Source: Trichodelitschia bisporula (lineage: Eukaryota). From it: DNA of 64,000 nucleotides. The stretch spans positions 1-64,000 of the forward strand of contig ML996711.1 in assembly GCA_010356995.1 (NCBI GenBank). The letters run 5' to 3'. Shown here one piece after another: positions 1-30,602 of this stretch. A model generated the notes under the pieces. That model did no database searches. It was not told the DNA's origin and saw only the letters and a list, made by a program, of their open reading frames with translations. The position numbers were made by a program, and so were the translations under genes. Numbering within the stretch: the first letter of the stretch is position 1; each line of letters begins with the position of its first letter.

Positions 1-1045
1 CCCCCTAGCCACCCCATTCGGAGAATCGGAGTGCGAGGTAGTGTTGCCTGAGTCACGTCGAGGCAGAGCTGACACTGCGAAGACGGAATAGGGGTCCTAA
101 CAGGCGCCCCCGCTTAATTGAGATATGACCCTTCCGATACTCATGATACTTCGCTTGCAGGTCCAACCGGGCCGGTTCTAGAGAGGGGAGCCGGCGACAG
201 GGCCGAAGACGGGGCGATTTAAGGGAGGCGTTGTGGTTCAATGCGGAGGGCAGGACGAGCACATGTTACTGCCCATCTAAAATCACTTAGCGCATCAGTA
301 ATTTCCAATTGAAGGAAATCTGGCGCTGGATTTAGCGGCAAGACGGAGGAAATATTGGCTAGCAAGAATGACAATGCATGGGCTAGTCTAGATTGAGCAC
401 TTTCCTCATTGAGCTAAGGATACGGACACAGGTCAGAGATAAGACGTTTTCGAATTCAAATCTAGCCGGCCAAGCATAGCACAGTATTTTTGCGAGGATA
501 ATATGATGAGGTAGCCCGTATTAAAGTGCTGCCGAGGGCGGTGTCCTGATCCGGACTTCCTAATGCGGAACGCGGCCATAGATCAAAGAGTACACCAGTC
601 CCCGTCTGCTCACTGAAGTTAAGCTTCGAACCGGTTGACTAGTAGTTGCGTGGGTGACCAGCAGCGAATCCCAACTGCTGTATGTTTTTGCTCGTTTTTG
701 CCTCACTGTGGACGTGTATCTTTTTACGGCAGGTTGGAAAATGGAACGGAAGGAGAGACCTGGGGATAGGACAAAAGGGAGACGGGACGTGGGTATGCGT
801 AACGTCGACTTGCCATTCATCGTGGAGATCGGCAGGAGATATGAAAGTCCGCATTGAAAGGTCCCTTTCGCTCCATGCCCCTCTGATGTGTTGATATGCC
901 AACGGTTAGGAAGCACAATACTGCTTTGCATCTTCTTTTACATGGTATATTTGATTTGCTCGTCATGTCATACAACTTCTAACTTCATGGAACTACCATT
1001 CCGTTCCGCCCATCCCCGCTACGCTTGCCTACACTACACTGTCCT

Positions 1046-16881: not shown

Positions 16882-19753
16882 GAGAGCGGTGACCGCGAGG
16901 TGACGCTGTCGTGCTTCACGACAAACTCTCCACTGCTCGGGCCGCTGGTGGCAACTTGCATCGCATTTTTATTTCCATTCTCGTACATGCCTTTTCTGCC
17001 TCTCCCACTCCACCCCAACGGGGTGGCGAGGGAGACGTGTGTCGGTGTTTGACGTTGCAACGTGGCGGCCATCTCGCTACCGTTGGCCTCTGGGGAAGCG
17101 GGCAAAAAAGGGCACTTTTGGTTTCAATGGGCTCTATATTCTTTTGAAACGTGTTTCCCGTTGTTCCCTCATTTCGCGCCATTTGGGAGGTTGGGAGTGT
17201 TTTCCAGCGCGCACAGCAGGGTACGAGGAGGTGTGGCGAGGGGAACGAGTGCATCGAACGGCGATCCGCTGATATTTTCGGGGTCGGATATTGGGCGCAC
17301 AGCATGTTTGCCTTGAACTGCTCACGAATGGAATAACGCTTCACGACCCTCTTTCAGAGACAAAGTGATGTGTTTGACATGCTGCGAACCGCCCTTTTTT
17401 TGGGGGGGCAAGCTACGCTCATATGCAGTTCTTTCTGCCCTCGTTCGGCGGAGGTTTTTGGAGTGGATCCCAGCCAGTAGCCGGGCGCCTATCTTCGGCA
17501 GCTGGCTGAACGATGCCCACGGTAGAGGAGTCCAGACACGACGGACCGATGAGCGGAATTGCCCCGTTGGTTTGCGTGTCACGGGAGATTGCGTTGGGTT
17601 TGTCTTACCGAGGCGGTGTCGCGCAGCTGTGGGATTCCGCCTTCGGAGACGGGTTGCTGCGCAAAAACTGGGCTCACATATGCAGATGGGGGGGAGACAC
17701 GGAGATGGGCGAAAGGTAGGTACCCGAGATGGCACGACGGGCCTGTACAGCAGGATTTGCATGCATTCCTCTTCGGTGGGTTATGAAGACCACATGGGGA
17801 GTTTGCTCCGGTGCTCTTAGTACCGTTACGGTAGACGATAGGCTTCTGGAGTGGAACACAAACAGACATGAGATGACATAATGGGATTTTGAAGTCATGT
17901 TTGAAGCGTTGGAGATGTGTTTTGAGTGGGGAGCGCACGGTTCGCCCGGGCAAGTTACTCGTTTTACTGTACCAACCTCGCTCAGGCAATGATCTTGCCG
18001 TTCAGGCATCAAACACCGTCATTATCTCAGACATCTGGCGTCCGGTAATTGGCCACTGGCCGACCTCGCCTCTCTCCTCCAACTTCCGTCTATCGTCACT
18101 TGGCTTGGCTCTATTTTCTCTCCAACTACTCTTCTCTCTCCACTGTAACTTTTCTTCATCTTTACCTCATCCCAACCTGTCGTCACCTCCAAGGCATCGA
18201 AGCACCACGCCTCCTGGTGACGTCGTTGTCCTCGGCGGCTTGTCACTGCTAATCGTTAGCAGAAAATCATTTTGGCAGCTAGCATTGACACGTCGTCCGC
18301 CATGTCAGCATGCATCAACCTCGTTACCTCTGCTTCCCCACCACCTGCCTAGCCGCCTTTCTTCCTCGGAAAGCCAACTACCGCTCGTCCACCAGCAATC
18401 AACCACCATCTCTACCTCATTGAAGCCCTTGCTCTGAGCCTCACTGTCACTCGGCCAAAAACTCCCCGTCCCCAGTCCTACCCTCCTTAACCCCCCCCTC
18501 CAACCCCCCAGTCCCCCAGTCTCCCCATCTCCCGGTTCCTGCGGTCGTTTTCATTCATCCCCCGCTCCCAGTCTTCGCCTTGATACCCACCATCTTCAAT
18601 CCTCCACCCAGAAATCTAAACGCTTTGAAACAACTCCCTCACGCAAGCCGAGGCAGTCTTTGCAGAATGCGTTGCGTCTTCGCTTCCGAATAAGACACAA
18701 CCACGATGTTCTTTGCTCTCTCGTGTGCATAGAATCGTTACATGCACGCCTATCTTGCTTGGTGTCGGACAAAAATCGCCTCCCTAACAACACTGCCGAT
18801 GCCACTTCACCCATTCTCCCCCGAAGCAGTGGGTGGCGGCCATGCGGGCTAGCCTTCAGTCCCCAATTCGGGATCCCTAGCCATTGCTCTGCGTCTTCGT
18901 ACAGGAAAGCCAAGCGCGGGAGCGGACCCATAGACGCGGTACATCGACCACGGCACGCCATTTTTTGTTTTTGTTATTCTCTTCTCAACTCTCCACTCTG
19001 CTCCCTTACCCCCTCAGCCGTAGGCCATACCGCCCACCCCCCTCTCTCCCATTGGAAGCAAGACCTTGTCTTCCTCGGCGGCTGCGGCACTCATGGCTCG
19101 GCCCTCTCCTTCCGCGTGGCCCAGGCCAATGCGCTGGGTGTTGCTGCGAACCATTGCCAGGACTTCCGTTGTTCGAACGGCGAGATCGTCGAGAATACCG
19201 CTCGCACATCCCACACACCCCCGTAATTAGGGGCTGAGCTGGCACTTCCAGTACCGAGCGGGGAGGAGCGCGAAGCGCACTCCTTCGTTTACCCACACTG
19301 CTGTAACCCACGGATAGCGACTGCTGTCCTGCCCGCAAGTATGCTAGATGGCATTGGTGGAGGGTGAGTGACGAGCGAGAGGATCAGGTCAGCAGCGCTG
19401 TGGGCGGCGGGAAAACCGTATAAAGTGCTTTTCTCGGCTGCTGCTGCTGTTGCTGCTTGTTCAGCAGAGGCAACGGACCGGACAGCAATTTTAGCGACCT
19501 TGTCTTTTCAAGTGAAGCGCTATCCAAGTTAAGCGGCTTTTTTTGCGTCGTCCTCGCATTTGCCCGATCCTTTCGCGTCTTTGTTCCGCGCTTGCCTTTA
19601 TCTGTCCCTGCTCTTTTCGCCCTATCTTCTATCGTCATCGCCCCCTTCGTCACCGCCGTTCGCCAGCCTTACCAACCCACCTTTACCCTCGCCCCGATCT
19701 CCGATCGCTCACCGTCCCCGCCACGGGCTACTGCCATAGACCTGGTCGCCGAT

Positions 19754-20214
19754 ATGTCCTCCAACTCGGCCCAAACCGCCGAGCGCGTGGGTCATTGGCA
19801 GGAAAACCTGCAGAGTGGGTAGTCTCCCATGCTCCGAACCACCAACTGACTCCATAGATTTCTGCGCCACGCACCAGCTCGGCCAGCCAACATACCAGAC
19901 GGCTTCTGACCGGCGCGGTGCGTGCCCCCAGCCGGGCGCCAGCTTACGCCTACCCCCCACCCCACCCCTTGCTAACCCCCACAGGCACTCGCACAGCCTG
20001 GTCTGCGACCGTGTGCGTCGGCGGCTGCTTTGTCCCCGCGCGCTACTGGTACTCCGGGGAGTACATACACAACGCGCGCGAGGATGCGGCCCATGTGGCT
20101 TATCAGTGGCTCATCAGTCTGCCGAATTATCAGCAGTGTCATCGGAGCCATCCGGGACCCGCCCGGCCACCGCAGACGTATCCGAATGCTGGGCCCAGGG
20201 AACCGGGGACGTAG
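19754..20214 (+). CDS. Small fungal double-stranded RNA-binding-motif (dsRBD-like) protein, 3 exons (19754-19814, 19858-19917, 19985-20214)
   Basis: Spliced MSSNSAQTAERVGHWQENLQNFCATHQLGQPTYQTASDRRGTRTAWSATVCVGGCFVPARYWYSGEYIHNAREDAAHVAYQWL. The alpha-beta-beta-beta-alpha pattern ends in A(R/K)EDAAxxA. Both introns restore the frame. Confidence 0.78.
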
Positions 20215-22094
20215 GCTTTGGCGAGCTTGGATGGAGGGTGAGAGGACGATGGGGACGACGTAGGGGACGAGGAGACGCTGGGGAGGATATGATACCGCGG
20301 GCTCCATAACTTTCTCCGTGCTGGGGTTCTCGTGAGCGCTCACTTCGACTTTTACTTGGCTGCGATGCTGCATTTTCAGCGCTTTTTTTGAAAGGCGTGC
20401 CTTCGGGTTCTGACGAAGTACGGAGCGTTGGCGCTTCAGTCTTTTTTTTTTTTCCTTGCGAGCGAGACGGGCGGTGGCCATCTCGTTTTCTGATGTGCGG
20501 TTATCTGTCAAGTGTCGATTAGGTTGGGCCTGGGGGACGCGGTACATCCGCTGTTGTTCGGAGAGACGAAATTTGGGATATTCGGCCAAAGTATGGGTTG
20601 AGTGGGAATCGCGGGCTGCTACCGGGCAGCGTGTCTCTCGAGCGTTTTGTTTTGGATGACCAGTCGCGGGCAAGCACGGTGGCTACATCTTCATGGCGGT
20701 CGAGTTCAGCACCTTTGGTGGGCACATCGTTTCCCTTTTTCAGGCCGCGCCTTTTGGGACCAGTGCTGCGAACTTGTTGGAGGGTAGTTTAGTTCGAGGG
20801 AGCGAGCCGGGCTACTACGTAGCTAGTGTACTTTCGAAGGGTACATCCGAATTACTTTTGCCGTCCAGTTATCCCGCTGCGAACAAAACTGCGAACTACT
20901 CGCGAACTATTGAAGTCTTTCGCATAAGTTGCGTTACGCAACGTCCCCGACGCTGGCGTAGGATTCGCAGCAAAGGCGGAAGGGCTGGCGGGTAGTTGAC
21001 CTGGTACTGGCTCCGTCTGGCGCACACTGCGCAGCGGTTGGCTGGTATATCGGGAGCGCAATTCGTCGGGCGGCTGTGCGGTTAGCGGGGGCGTTCAGCC
21101 AGTCTCGTGGGATCGCGGGGATTCGAATATACTCCCTTTGGAACTAGGTCCAGTGTTGAAACTTGAGGTGTGCCTGTGTGACTATATGTTTGAGATGAAG
21201 AACATTCGCTCCTTCGGCGCGCGCGCCTGACTGACAGCGCCTTCACGCGCTTTTTGATAACGGGCCCCCGCGTGTCCCGGCCGTGGGGCGCGTGGTCGTC
21301 GCGTGGGGCGGCACATGATGACAGCCTTGGGCGTTGGGCACGGGTTCGGGCTGCGGGGTGGGTCGGGTTGCAATTTTGGCTTGTTGGGCGGGAGGAGAGG
21401 GATGGATTTCAAGGACGGATGGACGTGGTTGTATTTTGTGCTTTGATAAAGCGGGTAGTTGCGGGCACCGTAGGGGCGGGGTGCGGGTGTGGGGTGCTGT
21501 GGGGTGGGGCGTCCAGGATGGGATTTTAAGGGTGGATTTGGAGAGGCTTTTGAGTGTGGGGTGCGCTGTGATGGGCTTGGAGCTGCTAGATTGAATATCA
21601 TGTTCACGGTTGAGGCAGTTTGGCTTCAAGTTTCATTGTGGTACATCGCCTTCATGTATACATCTTCAAACATGTCTTCACGCTTTTATCCTGACCCATC
21701 CCATCGTGATATTGTCCCCGTACATGTCCATTTCCACTGTCCCCATAGCAGTCCCCTTTCCAACATCCCCACCAGCCCGAGGTCGCCCTATCCTAGCCCG
21801 TAGTTATCCTTCGTCTGCGCATATCCTTCCTTTTTTGACGGTATCACCCCCCCCCGCAATCCCTCACAGACCCTCCCATCGCACCCCGTAAGCATCCTGA
21901 TGCCCACTTCAATAGCTTCCTCCATAGAACCCACTCATCAAACTCCCACGTCGTCCTATCGTGCCATCCATTGTGCCATCTCATCGTGCCGTCCCGTCAT
22001 GCACATCCAGTCGTGTCGTCGTCAGAGAGAGTGTTTGCCCCTGCCCTGCACAGGTGCTCGAGGCATACCACCTGTACTAGACAGGAGCAAAGTA

Positions 22095-23370
22095 GTCTCC
22101 CACAGGGAGCATGTCCCCCACTTGGGAGAACGTGCAGCCCCACCGAGGAGGTACACTCGCCAGCCAGATATATTTCAATGTCCAGCCAACTTGCTGGGGC
22201 CCCGGGCGGTTGTGGAGTGTAGAAGTGTACGCCCGGAGCCATAGCTGTTCCCCCCAGGGAGGGAGTGGCACCTCCCCAAGGTACAGGCACACCCTGGCAG
22301 ACACCTTTCGCTGTCCGGCCGACTGTTGGGGCTCCTGGCAGCGATAGAAGTGCGCGCCTGAAAGCCCCAGCAGTCCCCCATCAGGGAGGATGTGCCGCCC
22401 CAATAAGGGATGGGCACTCCCCGACCAGACACATTTCGGTGCCTGATCGACTGCGCTGGACTCCGGGAAGCAGCGGCGTTGGACTGCATGCCCGAGAGTC
22501 CCAGCAGTTCCTTATTGCGGAGGGCGTGCCAGCCGGACAAGTGGTAGTGTCCGGCCGGCTGTGCTGGGGCTACGGGCAACAGTGGCGTGGGAACTGCATG
22601 CCCGGAGCCCCAGCGGTCGCCATTCCGGGAGGACGTGCTAGCCGGATATATAGCGGTGTTTGGCGGGCAAAGAATTGATGGAAACTCGCCAGCGGAGCAC
22701 ATTTCGGTGTCCGGTCGACCGTGGTGGGGTCCCGGGCAACATTGGCGTTAGAACTGCATGCCCGAGACCCCCAGCGGCCCCCCTTCGGGACGGACCTGCC
22801 AGCCGGACAAATGGTGGCGTCCGGCTGGCAGTTCTATGGCTCCGGACTACAGTAGCATTTGAACTGCGTGCCCGGAAGCCCCAGCCGTCCTCCATCAGGG
22901 AGGCCCGTGCCATCTCAGGCAGAGAGAGGGAGGAAGCTCGCCAGTCAGACACATTTCGGTATCCGGCCGACGGTGGTGGGGTCCCGAGCAACAGTGGCGT
23001 TTGAACTGCATGCCCGGGACCCCGAGTGGCCCTCCCTGCAGGAAGGACCCACCAGCCGGACCGATAGCGGTGTCCGGCTGGCAGTGCCAGGGCCCGGGCA
23101 GCAGTGGCGTTTGCACTGCGTTACCGAAAGCCCCAGCCTTCCTTCATCAGGGAGGCCGTGCCACCTCCCGGGAGGGGCACTAGCCAGCCGGACAGACAGG
23201 GCTGTCCGGCCGACTGCGGGGCCAAGACTCCGGACAACATCGCCATATCGACCACGCATGCCCGGAGCCCTGCGTCCCAGCCACCTCCTCTACGGAGGGG
23301 CGATGGACGTCTCCTCCAGGGAGAACCCCACCAGCCGGCTACAAGATGGGGAGTGTAGCCGGCTGGCCGG
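22095..23370. repeat. Degenerate tandem array of modular palindromic (hairpin) units, 110-160 bp period
   Basis: Core GAACTGCATGCCC-like motif at 22222, 22347, 22481, 22591, 22751, 22861, 23003, 23113 and 23251; perfect 13-bp stems at 22796-22831 and 23331-23366. Confidence 0.9.
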
Positions 23371-23540
23371 AACCAATATACGCGGCACGCCGGAGTTATA
23401 TATAGGATATAACGTCTTCTGTCGTTGGAGCGGGTCGATTGATGATATACCTCTGCCAGGTGACATTCCGGCAGAGAAAGGGTCTTACGTCGACCGGCAA
23501 GGAGATAGTGCCGACCGACCGCCCGTAGTGATTCCAGCGA

Positions 23541-26500
23541 TTAGTTCTGGGGGCCGGACGCCCCAGAACGCTTCGCGGCCTTCAGAAATTCAAAGTCTGC
23601 GTTTTGGAGATTCAGATTCTGCCCCTGTGAAGGAGGAGGTCTCATCGGAGCTGTACCGGGTGAAGCTTGCGCGCCGTAGGCCGCCTGGTAAGGGTCCCTA
23701 CGCGGTCCAGACGTTGGGGCCCTAGGACCACCCTGGATATTGTAATACGGTGAGGGGGTCGGTGCAAGAGAGCGGCAGTACGTCGAGACTTGCGGGGTCG
23801 TGGTCGGATATGCTGGACCTTGGTTCATAGGGGCCTGGGCACCCATCGGAGCATGATGCATCGGGCCTGCAGCCATCGGAGCACGATTCATCGGCCCTGC
23901 GCCCATCTGAGCGTGAGGCATTGGGTGCCCACCCATCGGGTTTCCGCCCATGGGGTTCCCGCCCATCGGGCCTGCACCCATCGAAGCGGAAGACATCGGA
24001 GCTTGCGGAATCGGGCCTCCACCCATCTGAGCATGATGCACCTGGCCTGCAGACATCGGAACCTGAACCATGGGAGACTGAGTAGCAGGAACCTTGAACT
24101 TCGGAGCCTGGTTCTTAGAAGGTTGACGCTTCTTCTTAGGGGGGGAATTTGGCGCAGGATTCGTGTCTTTGGCCTGTAGGTCGCGGAGGCGGGTACCGTA
24201 CCAATCTGCAACTTTCTTTTTCTGTTCCTCAGTGGTGGCGTTAGAGAGAGCCACCCGCATACGTTCCTCTAAGACCGCACGCATATCTTGCGGTGCAAAG
24301 ACAGGCTGTTGCGCCTGCTGTTCCTGGGGAGGAGCAGCGTGCTGCACCTGCTGTCCCTGGACTTGAGCACCACCATACTGCGCCTGCTCGGCCTGGCGAA
24401 TAGCACCAGCTGCGGCTTGACGACGCATATCTTGTTGATTATTCCGAAGCTGAGTGTCGATGAGTGCATTATTGACTCCTCCCTGGGATGGCGCCTTAAG
24501 AGCCGCATCCCTCTCAGCCAGCGCTTCCGACGACCCGGACCACAGGACCTTTAACTGGCACAAAGGATTGTCATCCTGCTTCAAGTCCAAGTAGTGGACC
24601 CCACCCTGCCTAGGACCTGTAAAGCCAAGCAGGTCCCAAGCTTGCTTGTCGAGTATGTCATGATACTTCTCGAATGCGGGCTTCCAAGCTTCACCAGGGT
24701 CGGCCCTCAGCTCAGCCTCCAGCTCGGCCCAGGTTTTCTGCCCTTCGTGATAGCAAAACATGAAGCGCAGCTTGTGTTCGAAATCATCCACCGGCGTGTT
24801 CTCCGGACAGTCGCACGGCCCCTGCGGCTGTTCCTGAGGTTCCGACAACGCCCCACCTTGCGGCTGTCCATATCTAAAGTTTGCAATATCCGTTCGAATA
24901 TTGCACAACTTCTTACGCCCATGCGGCTCTTCCTGAGTCTCCGGCTGCGTGCAATCACTAGGAGCGATCGGGATAAGAGCGAGCGGAGGAGAGAGTGGAG
25001 TGAAAACCCCCCGCTGGAACTGCGCCATCATCTCCTCATTAGGCTTGTGAGCGTGCTCGACCGACGTGGAGGGCTTCTCAGCACCTGTAAGGTCTGTGGG
25101 CTCAGGCAGTTCGCCAATGATGCAGCGATTGGGGCTAGACACCGTGCTAGCCGGAAGGGTCGCTACAAAGTCATCCCGAGCTTGAGCGCTCAAAGGTGGG
25201 TTTTCCGCGGACTGAGGAGCGGCATCGTTTTGGGCACCCACATTTTCGGTGACAGTGCTCCCAGCACTGCTGGGGATGGGAACACCGAAGGGCCCGCTGA
25301 GCAGGTGATAGGCCTCAGACACCTTGCTGGCCGGAAGGCTCTCTACAAAGTGTTCCAGAGCTTGGCCACCCACCCATTGCTTTTCCAAGGGCTGACGTTC
25401 GGCATCGCTCAGTAAATCCAGATTTTCGGTAATAGTGCCGGGAATTGCGCCGAATTGAATAAAAAGCTCCCCCGTCCCGGCTCCAGCCTTGTAGAGGAAG
25501 GCCATAAGCCACCGACGTATCTCCCAATCGTCCGATGCAACATTGCCATCGACGGTGACTCCGGCGTTGCCAGGGAGGTTCTGTGCATCGTTGTTGGCAG
25601 CATTGCCATCGGCGTTGACTTCAGGGTCGTCGGTAAAGGCCTTGAGCCACTGACCCAAGTTGCCCTCAGGGCTTGCGAGCAAGGCGTTGACGCGCTGATC
25701 CGTCTCTGCATCGCTGCTTGCAACATCGCTATCGACGGTGACTCCAGCATTGCCAGAAAGGCTCTGTGCATCGCTGCTGGCAGCATTGCCACGGACGGCG
25801 ACTCCAGCGTTGTCAGGAAGGTTCGGTGCGTTGCTGCTGGCAACATTGTCGTAGACGTCGTCAATGATGAGGTACTCATTAGGACCGAGCGTCAAACCGA
25901 TGCCAGGCACGTTTGGGAGGTCGGAAAGTTTGACACCGCGCTGAGGAAAAAAGTGCACTTCGCCCTCATCAACCTTCGCACGCTTTGGATCCGGCTCGGA
26001 CGGGGAGCTATAGCGACGCTTTGAGCCAGTCGCAGCCTTATCAGGAGCGGTGTTCTGCGGATCATCAGATGAGGAATCCATAGCATGGGAAAGACTCACC
26101 CCAGGTTCAGCCGGAGTCCGAGAGCCCGCAGGCTTGAGTTGAGCAGAAGTGGTTTTCGGTGTAGTCACACTGGAAGCAGAGTTATGGGGAGAGGGGTTCT
26201 CATTCATCGGCTTAGACGCGCACTCGGGCTTCTGCGGAGGCCCTTGAAACTTGGGAAGGCTCAGGCCGAGTCCGGCCGGAGTCGGAGCGCCCGGAGTAGG
26301 CTTCGGCAGAGCAGGTTTGGTAGGGGGGCCTTGAGACTTGGGAAGGCTCAGACCCAGACAAGCCGGGATCGGAGCACCGGGAGTCGGAGCCGGCATAGGC
26401 TTGTGTTGAGCAGAAGTAGCTTTCGATGAAGTTCCACTGGAAGCAGAGTCATGGGGATTGGGGTTGCCCTTCATACGCTTAGACGCAGACTCGGGGAAGC

Positions 26501-28375
26501 CCTCGGCAGGACGCTTCTTGCTAGAAGGCACGCCAGGTGTGGTGGAGGTTTTGCCAGGCTTCTGTTCAGCAGTCGTCTCCATTTCATCGAACAAGGTGTC
26601 GAGAGTCTGATCACCCATGCCATCTCCGAAAAGATCATCGAAATCGAAGTCGTCCGCGTGTCCCGGATCCCCGGTGGCTTCACTGAACGCAGTGTCAGGA
26701 TTCCCGGCGGGTTCGTTGAGCGCGGCGTCAGGATTCCCGGCGGGTTCGTTGAGCGTGGGGTCGGGATTTCCGGCAGGTTCCTTGAGCGCGGTATCAGGAT
26801 TCCCGGCGGCTTCATTGAGCGTGGCGTCGATATCCTTAGGGGGAATCTTCTCTCCGAACCAGTCAGTGGGATCGAAGTTGGCCGGCAGTCCAGAATCTGC
26901 CTCGTTTTGCGAATTTTCAGCGGTCAAGGCGTCCACTGTGCGAAACAACTCATCAACATTCGGATCAGGACAAATGCTGGTGTCCACCCATTCTGGCACA
27001 TCCAGGGCAGGATCAAAATTAGTGTCCACCCATTCTGCCATAAAGTCCGGCTCGCCGGGAGTCGGCGCTGACTCCGAAGTTTCCATAAGATGGTTCTCCT
27101 CGGCAGCGATGGCGGAAGAAGCCTGGCCAACGGCGCCTTGAGCACCAGAATTGACAATGACATTGCTATTGGCCTGACCAGAAGGATTGAGAGAGCCGTT
27201 GTAACTACCAGTCTGGTTGATATTCAAAGTGTTACCAGGGCCCGTACCGCCAAACTGACCAGCGAGGCGAGGGTTGACAGTGCCACCCGTAATGTCGGTG
27301 CCATTGAGATCGTGAGCAGGCGGGTAGGACGCCGCATTGTACTGACCCTCAGCCGCAACAGGAACGAGAGTTTGCTGCGGCCCGCCATGTCCAAAGCGAC
27401 CGAAGTTTTGAGGAACTTGATTCTGAAGGGCACCCTGATTGCCCTTATTGCCGTGATCCTGAGAAGCGCTGGAGCCACCCTGGTTGTTGTGATGAGCTCC
27501 GTGCATGCCCTGAGGGCTGTTGCTGCTCATCGTGGGAGGGGCAAAGACCGGACGAACCGGGTTCAGGTTGGTCCGACCGCTCACGTACAGAGGATTGCCG
27601 TAAACGCCGGGATCCACATAATGACTACCCTTGTTGATGTTGACCTGGCCAGGACGAGGACCATTTTGGTTGAAATTGGCCTGACCGGGATGGAAGGCAC
27701 CGAGACTGCCGTAGGCCGGGCCAGTAAACTGACCGCTGTTGGGGTGCTTGTTCTGGTCTGCGCCATTTTGACCGGGATAGGTATTAGCTTGATCACCAGT
27801 CTGAGGACCATAATTGCCAGCAGCAGGTGGCTGGTATCCGATACCGATCTTCCGAACCGGGACCTCTCCCGAAGGGGTCTTAGCCGTGACCATAACCATG
27901 TGATCAGGGGCTTTGCCACTAATAGCCTTGATGTGATGCTCAGAGATTCCGAAACTCCTCATGTCCAGTTGCTTGCCGATCACATGGCGGAGTTTCTCGC
28001 TCTTCTGAGGCAGACCCATGCGCTTGAGGTAGCTGGAGAGACCCGTAGTGACCTTCCTCAGATCTTGATCGGAGTCGGTGAGAAGGCTACTGGTAAGTAC
28101 AACAGCCGTGGCGTGCACTAAGTTCCGATGCACGTTCTTGAAACGTTCGAATCTCTCCTCGGCAACGTCCAGGGGAACGCGAATGTTCTCGGCAATCCGC
28201 GCATGGGTCCCAAGGTAGGAATTCTTGAGTTCATCTATGTCGGGGGCTGCAAACTATTTATCGACGTTAGCTACCGTGTATACAACTTGCGTAGAATGAT
28301 CAGTTAAAACCAAGAACTTACCGACATAGTGAGCGGGCCTGTCTTAGGGACGGCACGATCCTGGCCTGTAGCCAT
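23541..28375 (-). CDS. Large (~1588 aa) low-complexity protein of unknown function; exon 1 28375-28322, intron 28321-28254, exon 2 28253-23541
   Basis: 4.7 kb stop-free frame; upstream exon MATGQDRAVPKTGPLTMS joins in frame via a GTAAGT...CTAAC...TAG intron; N/G/Q-rich, acidic, Pro-rich and Q/M-rich segments. Confidence 0.85.
25530..25850 (-). repeat. Coding ~60-bp degenerate repeats (N(V/A)ASS(N/D)Axx LxxNAGVxVxG), 3-4 copies
   Basis: Repeated peptides NVASSNAPNLPDNAGVAVRG, NAASSDAQSLSGNAGVTVDS and NAANNDAQNLPGNAGVTVDG. Confidence 0.8.
26656..26830 (-). repeat. Coding 33-bp tandem repeat, about 5 copies (L(N/K)EPAGNPDxx)
   Basis: Repeated GTCAGGATTCCCGGCGGGTTCGTTGAGC-like unit on the + strand with 33-bp period. 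Confidence 0.9.
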
Positions 28376-29193
28376 GATGACGGATGGCGAGCAGGTCTGA
28401 CTGAGGATGCGTGTTTATCTGACGCGGATGTGATGAGAACCGTGACGCGTCGCGAGTTCGCGATGTAGATGTCAGGTATGATGAACGCGTGTCGGTACAA
28501 CTCGCGAGAAAGTGCTTTGGGTCGCGGGTTGAGTCGAGCCAAGGGGGAAGAGTACGCCACTGATCTGCTGCAATGTCGCAGGGAACTGATGGCTATTGTG
28601 AGCTCACAAAAGTGCCAACCAGAGACGATGTTATGTGCAACAACGCGATGGGTGTGCAACGCGAAAACGCGCTTTCAAGAGGCCGAGCGTATTTGCAGAG
28701 CAAAATGACAATGAATAAGGAGGTGTGAACGCTTGGGTATTGCTTGAGGAAAGAAGAAGCAGTGGACGATGCTGATGATCGAAATGTGAGTAGGTTGGTG
28801 TGGAGAGGTTGCAGAGAAGAGGAAGGAGAAGAGAAGACGAGGTGTTGATGAGCGAAGGGCCACAGTCTTCGCGCATGCCCATTGAGAGCTTGGCGACTGT
28901 GGCCTAAGCTTCATATCGTCCGAAGTCTGGAGTTATCGTGGACAGATGATATGTTCGGATGGAAGGACCCGAAGGGGGTGTGGGTGGTAAGTAAGGGCTA
29001 GGAGGACTCGGTAAGCAAACACAACACCCAAACATCAGCCAACACCCAAGTCAGAAGCAGAAGACCAGTCAAGACCGACAAAGACAAGAGCGGATACATT
29101 TACAAATCTATCCCAACATCAATTACAAGCACCAACGCCACCTAGCGCAGTTCCGATCCGAGTCCGTCATGTTGCAGGTTGAAGAAAGTATAT

Positions 29194-30602
29194 TCAGAGA
29201 GATCTCGGTTTCTCCATCTTCTCGTCATCATCCAACTCTTCTTCCGTCGTAAATTGGCCGTCCGAGTCAATATCTTCAGGCTCCGGTTGCTGGGAGACGG
29301 ACTTCGCGTTCGCATATTGTAGGCCGCTAGTCCGTCCAAAGAAATCTCCGGTTCGTAATCCACGAACATCGGCGGGGTTCACAGCTTGCTTCAGGTTGCC
29401 TTGGGCTTTCATCTCTTTGATGTATTCGCGAACGGGACACATGGCTGCATCGCGACATGCTTCTTTTATGTCGCTTCCGGACATGCCGGCACTGACCCGG
29501 ACTAGATAGTCCAGATCGAAATTCGCATGGTCAACTTTGGTATCCCGCAGAATGAGCTTGAAGATCCGTCGCCGCTGGTGCGTTGAGGGGAGAGACACTG
29601 GGAACTTCTTTGGCATCCGACGCAGAATGGCCTCGTCGATATCTTGAATGCGGTTGGTAGCTCCCAGTATGCATATTCTTTGGGGAACTCCTGAGGAATT
29701 CGCGGAAGCCAGGCCATCCCAGTGCGTCATGAATCTACTTTGGTTAAAACTACTGGACTAGAACTTTGAAGACGCATACTCAGCCTTAACCATACCGCTA
29801 GCCTCGTGCTCGCCACTTCGCCTTTGGCCCAGCACAGCATCTATTTCGTCGATGAACACGATGGTCGGCTGAAGCTTACGCGCAAGAGAGAAAACGGCGC
29901 TGACAAGCTTGTTCGAATCGCCGTACCACTTCTCCGTCAAAGTGGAGATATGGAGGTTGATAAAGCAAGCGCCGCTTTCATGTGCCAGAGCTTTAGCAAG
30001 CATCGTTTTGCCGCAACCGGGAGGACCGAACAGTAGAACGCCAGATGGGGCAGACAGCAGTGAAGATGAGTGGGCGTAAAGATGGGGCATGGTGAGAGGG
30101 TAGATGACAGATTCCTTCAGTTCTTCGATAATGTCGTCAAGGCCGCCGATATCTAGATTGCACTCAGAATACATTCGGTTATCAAGGAGCGAGCGGCTCT
30201 ACCCTCGAACGTCACCGGAATATCCTCTGGAGCCACGACTTCCATGGCTATTGTCTGCTCATAGGGGGTGAGGTGGAGGTCTTGCAGCCGGGGCCGGTCA
30301 TGGCCGTAGGGATGGTCTTCGTCGCCATCGACACCCTCCTTGCTGGCGAGGATGCCTTCCAGCTTCTTACGGGCGGCGCTGGCCTTCTGCTTCGCCTCCT
30401 CTTTCTGGCCGCCATCGAAGTCTAGCTTGGAAATAATGCTGCGTGCTACCCAGTATGCCGCGACGGACTGTAGTTCCGAACAACGCATCAGCACGCGCCA
30501 CTTAGAAACGGAGACAGCAGGACACGAGGGAAATCTTACGGCAAGGGCGATGGAGAGCACATCCTGTAGCAGGATCCACTTGCGGTTCGTAGTAGTAGTC
30601 AT
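29194..30602 (-). CDS. MSP1: Mitochondrial/peroxisomal membrane AAA ATPase Msp1 (ATAD1), 4 exons
   Basis: N-terminal membrane anchor, [72 protein letters not shown]. Confidence 0.95.

Follow-up and report, generated by a model that had tools for sequence, protein, structure and literature searches.

A transcribed tandem array of hairpin modules in the probable 3' untranslated region of an orphan gene of Trichodelitschia bisporula

The DNA considered here is a stretch of 64,000 nucleotides (nt) from Trichodelitschia bisporula (positions 1 to 64,000 of contig ML996711.1, assembly GCA_010356995.1), referred to below as the window. Within it, positions 22095-23370 form a degenerate tandem array of hairpin modules. 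The array is non-coding and transcribed, lies behind the stop codon of a minus-strand gene, and folds more stably in the minus than in the plus sense. Our favored explanation, held tentatively and with somewhat less than even confidence, is a structured hairpin-repeat array in the 3' untranslated region (3'UTR) of an orphan gene that folds in the minus sense, is under weak structural constraint and probably plays a role in cis; the transcribed strand, the selection and the function in this description are what we infer.

An initial annotation, made from the letters alone, had placed about 9-11 units at this location. Tandem Repeats Finder, the inverted repeats and a slicing of the array all bear this out. 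Cutting at 11 anchors in the first hairpin, H1 (22160, 22293, 22421, 22529, 22638, 22689, 22799, 22941, 23052, 23184 and 23331), yields slices of 133, 128, 108, 109, 51, 110, 142, 111, 132, 147 and 41 nt, which align with one another and lie near the spacings first noted. They comprise nine full units of 108-147 nt and two partial units that retain H1 only. In plus-strand order, a full unit consists of H1 (a palindromic stem of 10-13 base pairs, bp), H2 (a long imperfect hairpin) and H3 (a stem of 5-6 bp), and five units carry an optional hairpin, H4, as an extra. The sequence bears out the described motifs of H1, H2 and H3 and the perfect H1 stems. It also contains the H2 arm variants GGACTC/GAGTCC, GGGGCT/AGCCCC and GGGGTC/GACCCC, as well as hairpins of the H4 type near 22392 and 23158, all as first described. 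A repeat search of 21900-23500 returned 20 direct families and 26 inverted pairs; perfect 13-nt inverted arms lie at 23331-23343/23354-23366 (H1 of the last partial unit), and 16-nt arms at 22793-22808/22819-22834 match at 94%.

H1 comes in two types that alternate between the units, distinguished by whether the loop is ATTTCG or differs from it, and the ancestral block would therefore have been a repeat of two units, about 250 nt long. A period of 252 nt at 22680-23167 (1.9 copies, 82% matches) is found by Tandem Repeats Finder, with a score of 683 that is by far the highest of the 38 rows for the window. Identity between units ranges from 55 to 84% with a mean of about 65%, the closest pairs being 5/7 (84%) and 6/8 (81%). 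The most decayed units are found at the edges of the array and the most alike ones at its center.

Some short matches lie outside the array. A 13-nt tandem repeat on the minus strand (ATCGTGCCATCC, 4.5 copies) at 21958-22015, in the distal part of the inferred 3'UTR, has CGTGCCATC in common with the H4 arm of the units at 22905 and 23156. On the other side, 23467-23482 matches 22915-22930 at 88% and is possible array debris, and a hairpin at 23541-23575 (6-bp stem, CTGGGG...CCCCAG in the minus sense), which overlaps the end of the host coding sequence (CDS), final codons and stop included, resembles debris of H2 or H1. By their resemblance to the units, remnants of the array may extend to the host stop codon.

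The modular build is specific to this locus within the window. A covariance model built from the nine full units and run unfiltered over both strands of the 64 kb gives these units 78.8-126.2 bits, and outside 22075-23521 no stretch exceeds 13.1 bits. When the 3' partners of the stems are shifted by 1-3 columns, the fraction of paired cells falls from 87.8% to 31-48%. An Rfam match had been sought; a scan of the whole window with Rfam 15 at gathering thresholds gave no family on the array, its sole match being a 5S rRNA gene at 568-686 (plus strand, full length, 71.4 bits), and an E-value scan of 21500-23700 gave a single row, mir-192, with 18.7 bits against a gathering threshold of 54 (E 0.53). 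Scans for the H1 pattern found at least 117 metagenome stretches and at least 120 stretches of prokaryote genomes, in collections with few or no fungi; each of the listed loci has a single hairpin site. Applied to 80 of the listed stretches from each of the two collections, the model gave 23.5-31.1 bits to three metagenome and two prokaryote matches, each of them the hairpin by which the locus had been selected, and found no array among these stretches. Such matches are best regarded as single chance hairpins.

That the array does not code for protein, as first proposed, is clear from several sides. Each of the six frames contains 3-8 stops (longest open run 190 codons), a plus-strand open reading frame (ORF) that overlaps the array at 22856-23722 has no Pfam match, and the deposited CDS ends at 23541. 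Three divides five of the unit lengths (108, 51, 111, 132, 147) but not the other six, so the reading frame is lost along the array. Together these observations rule out a coding repeat. Another candidate was a repeat altered by repeat-induced point mutation (RIP), whose signature is a TpA/ApT index above about 0.89, a (CpA+TpG)/(ApC+GpT) index below about 1.03, and C>T changes at CpA. With indices of 0.68 and 1.33 at a GC content of 0.65, and C>T before A in 4 of 40 cases, this candidate is ruled out as well.

The array is transcribed, a point on which its reading as a structured RNA depended. Contigs of four sequencing runs (X1-X4, from two samples and two studies) were aligned to 17000-30000, and uncovered parts (several X4 bins and a gap at 21465-21650) were not counted as evidence. 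Five spliced joints with GT..AG or CT..AC ends are present in X3 and X4 and lacking in X1 and X2; because of this we take X3 and X4 as RNA and X1 and X2 as DNA, the RNA status not being on record. A 2371-nt contig of X3 is colinear with 21650-24020 without any joint and thereby spans the array in full, the flank distal to it and the 3'-terminal 480 nt of the host ORF. Contigs of X4 lie on 21869-22420 and 22589-22887. The array is thus located after the stop at 23541 and before the contig end, with no splice between, and near that end, at 21650, the minus strand is by eye A/U-richer with UGUAUA- and AAUGAAA-like words. The simplest model is a 3'UTR of about 1.9 kb belonging to the minus-strand gene. 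Of the roles initially suggested, a structured 3'UTR fits best, and we consider it likely that the array is a minus-sense 3'UTR.

On the minus strand, 170 nt separate the stop codon of this host gene from the start of the array. The product of the gene is a 1573-residue low-complexity protein rich in Q, N, G and P. Its ORF at 23541-28253 (minus strand) has no Pfam domain. A deposited hypothetical protein of 1573 residues with the source label Trichodelitschia bisporula is identical to the window ORF except for a gap of 15 residues, which corresponds to a 45-nt CT..AC joint in the RNA. Relatives were sought in several ways. A word-indexed search with residues 1010-1330 among proteins of 841-2678 residues returned one match of 7997 scored candidates, the protein itself; a full HMMER pass of the least repetitive part over 1.84 billion representatives again returned only the protein itself; and the ESM Atlas gave no usable match to part of it. 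As far as sequence comparison reaches, the host gene is an orphan in the databases searched. The ORF also contains coding tandem repeats of its own on the minus strand, at 23839-23981, 25703-25848 and 26665-26829, with periods of 15/30, 60 and 33/66 nt. The window as a whole is fungal, with an HRQ1-type helicase, a Zn2Cys6 protein (both by Pfam) and the dispersed 5S rRNA gene.

The hairpins had originally been described on the plus strand. They are present there, but the array probably folds as RNA on the minus strand, where the predicted structures are more stable. The complete 1276 nt reach a minimum free energy (MFE) of -734.6 kcal/mol in the minus and -662.2 kcal/mol in the plus sense, as compared with means of -587.8 and -577.3 kcal/mol for 40 dinucleotide shuffles per strand. 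The resulting z-scores of -12.6 and -7.8 indicate a stability beyond composition. RNAalifold assigns the nine units -38.46 kcal/mol in the minus and -14.72 kcal/mol in the plus sense, and the energy of the single unit is lower in the minus sense in nine out of nine. Resolved by hairpin, the minus sense is more stable for H1 and H2 in all nine units and for H3 in five. A strand-symmetric union of the MFE pairs holds 434 Watson-Crick pairs, to which 55 G·U pairs are added in the minus sense and 14 in the plus sense. H2 forms an imperfect stem of -21.0 to -33.5 kcal/mol in the minus sense of every unit, and in unit 9, the most diverged, it retains -31.9 kcal/mol compared with -10.1 in the plus sense. 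The cUUCGg-type loop noted at 22781 holds for a plus-strand reading and reads GAAG in the better-folding minus sense. Folding and G·U asymmetry together suggest that the transcribed strand is probably the minus strand.

Is the pairing selected, or simply inherited? The latter is the core of the strongest rival explanation, a minisatellite that evolves neutrally or nearly so: a founder rich in palindromes would have been amplified in the 3'UTR by unequal exchange or slippage and would now be decaying without function, its hairpins inherited from the founder and not maintained. We regard this as a serious alternative, nearly as likely as the favored explanation though clearly on the doubtful side. 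The two were compared on a set of 34 stem pairs in nine units (304 cells) with 500 column shuffles as the null. Paired cells amount to 87.8% compared with 86.2% in the shuffles, 13 of which reach the observed value. By type, the cells are divided into 214 Watson-Crick, 53 G·U, 15 A·C and 22 others.

Neutral decay falls short of the observed minus-sense pairing in strand-symmetric simulations on the unit tree, matched to 17% divergence with 2000 runs for each ratio of transitions to transversions (Ts/Tv). At Ts/Tv of 0.9, 2.0 and 3.7, simulated minus-sense pairing is 75.6%, 79.1% and 81.7%, and the observed 87.8% is reached in a fraction of 0, 0.0015 and 0.0165 of the runs, respectively. Plus-sense pairing, at 75.3%, is within the neutral range at Ts/Tv of at least 2. 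The surplus of G·U over A·C cells points in the same direction: parsimony on the unit tree counts 37 state changes to G·U, 15 to A·C and 19 to others, and 23, 10 and 15 where a pair has a clear Watson-Crick majority (binomial p 0.035). Transitions to transversions are 82:22 in paired columns as opposed to 33:37 in unpaired ones. The unpaired columns are without a matching strand bias (C>T plus A>G 18, G>A plus T>C 15), which argues against mutation bias alone. Also difficult to reconcile with a minisatellite that merely decays are the well-kept H2 of unit 9 and the mean unit identity of about 65%, by which the array is not young. Taken together, there is modest evidence for an RNA-level constraint in the minus sense.

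A considerable number of points weigh on the other side. The compensatory stem changes highlighted at the outset do exist, in 7 of 34 pairs and 9 of 304 cells, but they are not significant: the shuffles have means of 4.9 pairs and 5.7 cells, and 88 and 46 of 500, respectively, reach the observed counts. The covariation score of 0.278 against 0.255 in shuffles, reached by 53 of 500, is not significant either. The Watson-Crick fraction of 70% (214/304) equals the prediction of independent decay at 17% per site, and divergence per cell is nearly equal in stems (17%) and loops (21%). All of this is what a minisatellite would produce, as are the decayed edges and alike center of ordinary arrays, an orphan host with no homologue among the 1.84 billion representatives, and the empty Rfam scan. 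In simulation, a G·U minus A·C difference of at least 38 is seen in 6-11% of runs, so that the excess beyond that of the root, whose consensus contains G·U pairs from the start, is not significant; furthermore, a mutation bias linked to transcription would favor the same excess. RNAalifold derived the tested structure from these same nine sequences in the minus sense, so the observed pairing is somewhat inflated. The array is known from one genome and its units are paralogues there, so that counts are non-independent; the unit tree is without strongly supported branches, and the loop columns are badly aligned, which may inflate their transversions. Since the host gene is an orphan in the databases searched, they offer no orthologous 3'UTR for comparison. 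The RNA evidence consists of strandless contigs from two runs of one sample, and a contig across array and ORF does not prove one transcript. Finally, we know of no effector, small RNA or phenotype of the array.

Inherited column composition together with G·U wobble accounts for most of the retained pairing, and double changes do not. If the array is indeed a minus-sense 3'UTR, we consider selection on its structure an evenly balanced question.

The favored explanation of a weakly constrained 3'UTR array could be pictured as follows. A hairpin-rich module would have undergone lineage-specific tandem amplification, starting from the two-unit block, each unit of which reads H3-H2-H1 in the minus sense with H4 optional. 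Transcribed within the host mRNA, inside the 3'UTR, the minus-sense RNA would form about 30 local stem-loops, of which nine would be imperfect H2 stems (about 20 bp each) and eleven H1 stems (10-13 bp). Base pairing would be retained chiefly by transitions that G·U tolerates, which we take as weak purifying selection on the minus-sense RNA structure. Most likely the array would act in cis, by offering many double-stranded sites to a nuclease of the RNase III/Dicer type or to a double-stranded RNA-binding protein, and in this way could set the stability, translation or localization of the host mRNA. In a bolder version, which we think unlikely, the tail of this mRNA would carry a naturally evolved, multivalent platform of hairpins, recently born by tandem duplication and under selection at the RNA level. 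Such a platform might act as a built-in polycistronic substrate of Dicer or RNase III, so that its prion-like (Q/N/G/P-rich) orphan host gene is throttled and small RNAs are shed, or else as a scaffold that collects many copies of one RNA-binding protein.

It is improbable, though worth considering, that the array is an independent non-coding transcript or a polycistronic precursor of microRNA-like RNAs (milRNAs) in which H2, with its about 20 bp and 9-nt loop, is diced, or that a fragment of the 3'UTR resists nucleases and builds up separately from the mRNA. Imperfect stems of the size of H2 are typical of Dicer substrates, and the minus-sense H2 stems agree with the hairpin of about 20 bp expected of a milRNA precursor in nine of nine units. 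In X3 as well as X4, contig word depth over the array exceeds that over the ORF body, a hint only, as contig depth cannot rank parts of a gene. Known microRNA (miRNA) clusters are likewise reported to be products of hairpin tandem duplication (PMC2607281, PMC2996404). Against a separate precursor stand the X3 contig, which is unbroken from the array into the ORF, and the mir-192 score far below threshold, with no Rfam miRNA family reached.

Still less probable, and in our estimate very unlikely, is a relic at the DNA level, either a tandem array of miniature inverted-repeat transposable elements (MITEs) or Helitron ends, or a cruciform satellite, with transcription as an incidental effect, for example by read-through from a plus-strand transcript at 17134-21465. 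Palindromic GC-rich stems of 12-13 bp may resemble transposon-end hairpins, which counts for this idea, and the contig depth of the neighboring transcript, 567 in X3 and 1856 in X4, is such that slight read-through could supply the low depth of the array. Its contigs stop, however, at 21465 (X3) and 21215 (X4), short of the array, and folding and G·U asymmetry favor the minus sense, opposite to read-through from the plus strand. For the MITE or Helitron-end origin raised initially, the 64-kb window offers no further copies of the unit, and the array has no RIP signature. A MITE would have terminal inverted repeats around a core, while the unit is made of three to four separate local hairpins; this build is rejected. 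Helitrons begin with TC and end with a 3' hairpin followed by a CTRR terminus; no constant CTRR word after H1 was seen by eye in the aligned units. Intra-strand, hairpin-templated conversion, also put forward at first, is not favored because it predicts perfect Watson-Crick stems on both strands, and the 53 cells that are G·U in the minus sense are mismatched in the plus sense.

Table 1 Coordinates of the array, its units and the host gene in the window. Bits refer to the covariance model of the unit.
Feature	Position	Strand	Basis
Tandem hairpin-module array: 9 full units, 2 partial, degenerate distal edge	22095-23370	-	Repeats, model, folding
Degenerate edge with short H3/H4-like hairpins (CTCCC..GGGAG type)	22095-22156	-	Weak model match 22075-22154, 7.6 bits
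Unit 1 (133 nt): H1 22159-22190, H2 22195-22243, H3 22248-22264, H4 region 22266-22289	22157-22289	-	100 bits
Unit 2 (128 nt): H1 22292-22323, H2 22327-22369, H3 22374-22390, H4 22392-22417	22290-22417	-	103.3 bits
Unit 3 (108 nt): H1 22420-22451, H2 22457-22503, H3 22508-22524	22418-22525	-	78.8 bits
Unit 4 (109 nt): H1 22528-22559, H2 22565-22612, H3 22617-22633	22526-22634	-	107.7 bits
Partial unit (51 nt), decayed H1 alone	22635-22685	-	Slicing
Unit 5 (110 nt): H1 22688-22719, H2 22725-22773, H3 22778-22794; first half of 252-nt higher-order repeat	22686-22795	-	99.4 bits
Unit 6 (142 nt): H1 22798-22829 (13-bp perfect stem), H2 22835-22883, H3 22888-22904, H4 region 22906-22937	22796-22937	-	126.2 bits
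Unit 7 (111 nt): H1 22940-22971, H2 22977-23025, H3 23030-23047; 84% identity to unit 5	22938-23048	-	97.1 bits
Unit 8 (132 nt): H1 23051-23082, H2 23088-23135, H3 23140-23156, H4 23158-23180; 81% identity to unit 6	23049-23180	-	114.7 bits
Unit 9 (147 nt), most diverged; H2 23223-23279	23181-23327	-	85.6 bits
Partial unit: H1 variant, perfect 13-bp stem 23331-23343/23354-23366	23328-23370	-	Inverted repeat, slicing
Proximal 3'UTR, stop codon to array; possible array debris	23371-23540	-	Repeat match, sequence
Inferred host-gene 3'UTR, ~1.9 kb; distal limit is RNA contig end	21650-23540	-	X3 contig; strand inferred
A/U-richer stretch with UGUAUA-/AAUGAAA-like words, possible poly(A) region of minus transcript	21640-21700	-	By eye; contig end 21650
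Host CDS main body; introns 26055-26099, 28254-28321; short first coding exon upstream of 28322	23541-28253	-	ORF, RNA joints, deposited protein
13-nt tandem repeat, 4.5 copies, distal 3'UTR	21958-22015	-	Tandem Repeats Finder

The plus-strand transcript at 17134-21465 converges on the gene that carries the array. It is spliced, with GT..AG joints at 19814-19858 and 19916-19984, and has no plus-strand ORF longer than 150 codons that starts with ATG, nor a Pfam match in nine stop-to-stop ORFs; it is an abundant RNA whose coding status is ambiguous. The bin 17000-17433 has a depth of 12397 in X3. Contigs of all four runs, DNA and RNA alike, have loose ends of 255 nt at 18003 and 19457, and short repeated words at these positions (for example, a GCT run at 19437-19457) seem to join another locus.

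If the minus-sense hairpins are selected, the array would clearly exemplify how a tandem repeat in a fungal 3'UTR can give rise to a structured RNA element, with about 30 stems on one mRNA, and the platform version would show such an element being born from a minisatellite. A useful check also comes out of the analysis: where double changes are too few for a test of covariation, the surplus of G·U over A·C pairs in stems still points to the strand that functions. If it is neutral, it would be an ordinary palindromic minisatellite and a warning that inherited palindromes can mimic covariation. Judging by titles and the beginnings of abstracts, none of the papers found to name Trichodelitschia bisporula deals with its repeats, and literature searches brought up no hairpin array of this kind in fungi.

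How does the array compare with known systems? 3'UTR minisatellites, also called variable number tandem repeats, and hairpin-forming satellite DNA arise by local tandem amplification, the former in a non-coding transcribed region. The array shares with 3'UTR minisatellites its local amplification, higher-order repeat and decayed edges, but differs in its long (108-147 nt), modular units and in its stems, where G·U outnumbers A·C in a strand-specific manner. The A-repeat of Xist and the stem-loops of roX are tandem hairpin repeats that are conserved across species and have known partners and phenotypes. Like these, the array has several copies of a short hairpin-forming repeat, which would provide many protein-binding sites on one RNA; in contrast to these conserved and partnered elements, it is known from one genome and lies in an mRNA tail.

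A further group acts on the mRNA that carries it. In yeast, the RNase III enzyme Rnt1 cleaves mRNA hairpins. Tandem stem-loop decay elements bound by Roquin are reported from 3'UTRs (PMC5775257). In both instances, mRNA hairpins recognized by their shape control the level of that mRNA, which is the mode proposed for the array, although the array has far more copies. Roquin recognizes a triloop, Rnt1 an AGNN tetraloop and Vts1/Smaug the loop CNGG; by eye, and without a formal test, none of these signatures was found in the minus-sense loops.

The tandem stem-loop miRNA precursors of rice (PMC2607281) and a placental miRNA family in human (PMC2996404) are reported as clusters formed by tandem duplication of hairpins. 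As in those clusters, head-to-tail copies of an imperfect hairpin of about 50 nt lie on one transcript, and the copies diverge while their stems stay paired. Different from them, the unit of the array has three to four unlike hairpins, is found in the 3'UTR of a fungal coding gene and has no Rfam miRNA match.

Tandem stem-loop repeats in regulatory RNAs are the subject of reviews (PMC4881525, PMC6117379), and arrays of MS2 and PP7 stem-loops engineered into 3'UTRs for RNA imaging are reported in PMC10209184. With the latter, the array has in common tens of tandem hairpins in an mRNA tail; the engineered arrays are artificial and consist of identical copies, whereas this one is natural, diverged and built of unlike hairpins. 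The known kinds of element to which the array stands nearest are tandem stem-loop RNAs and 3'UTR minisatellites.

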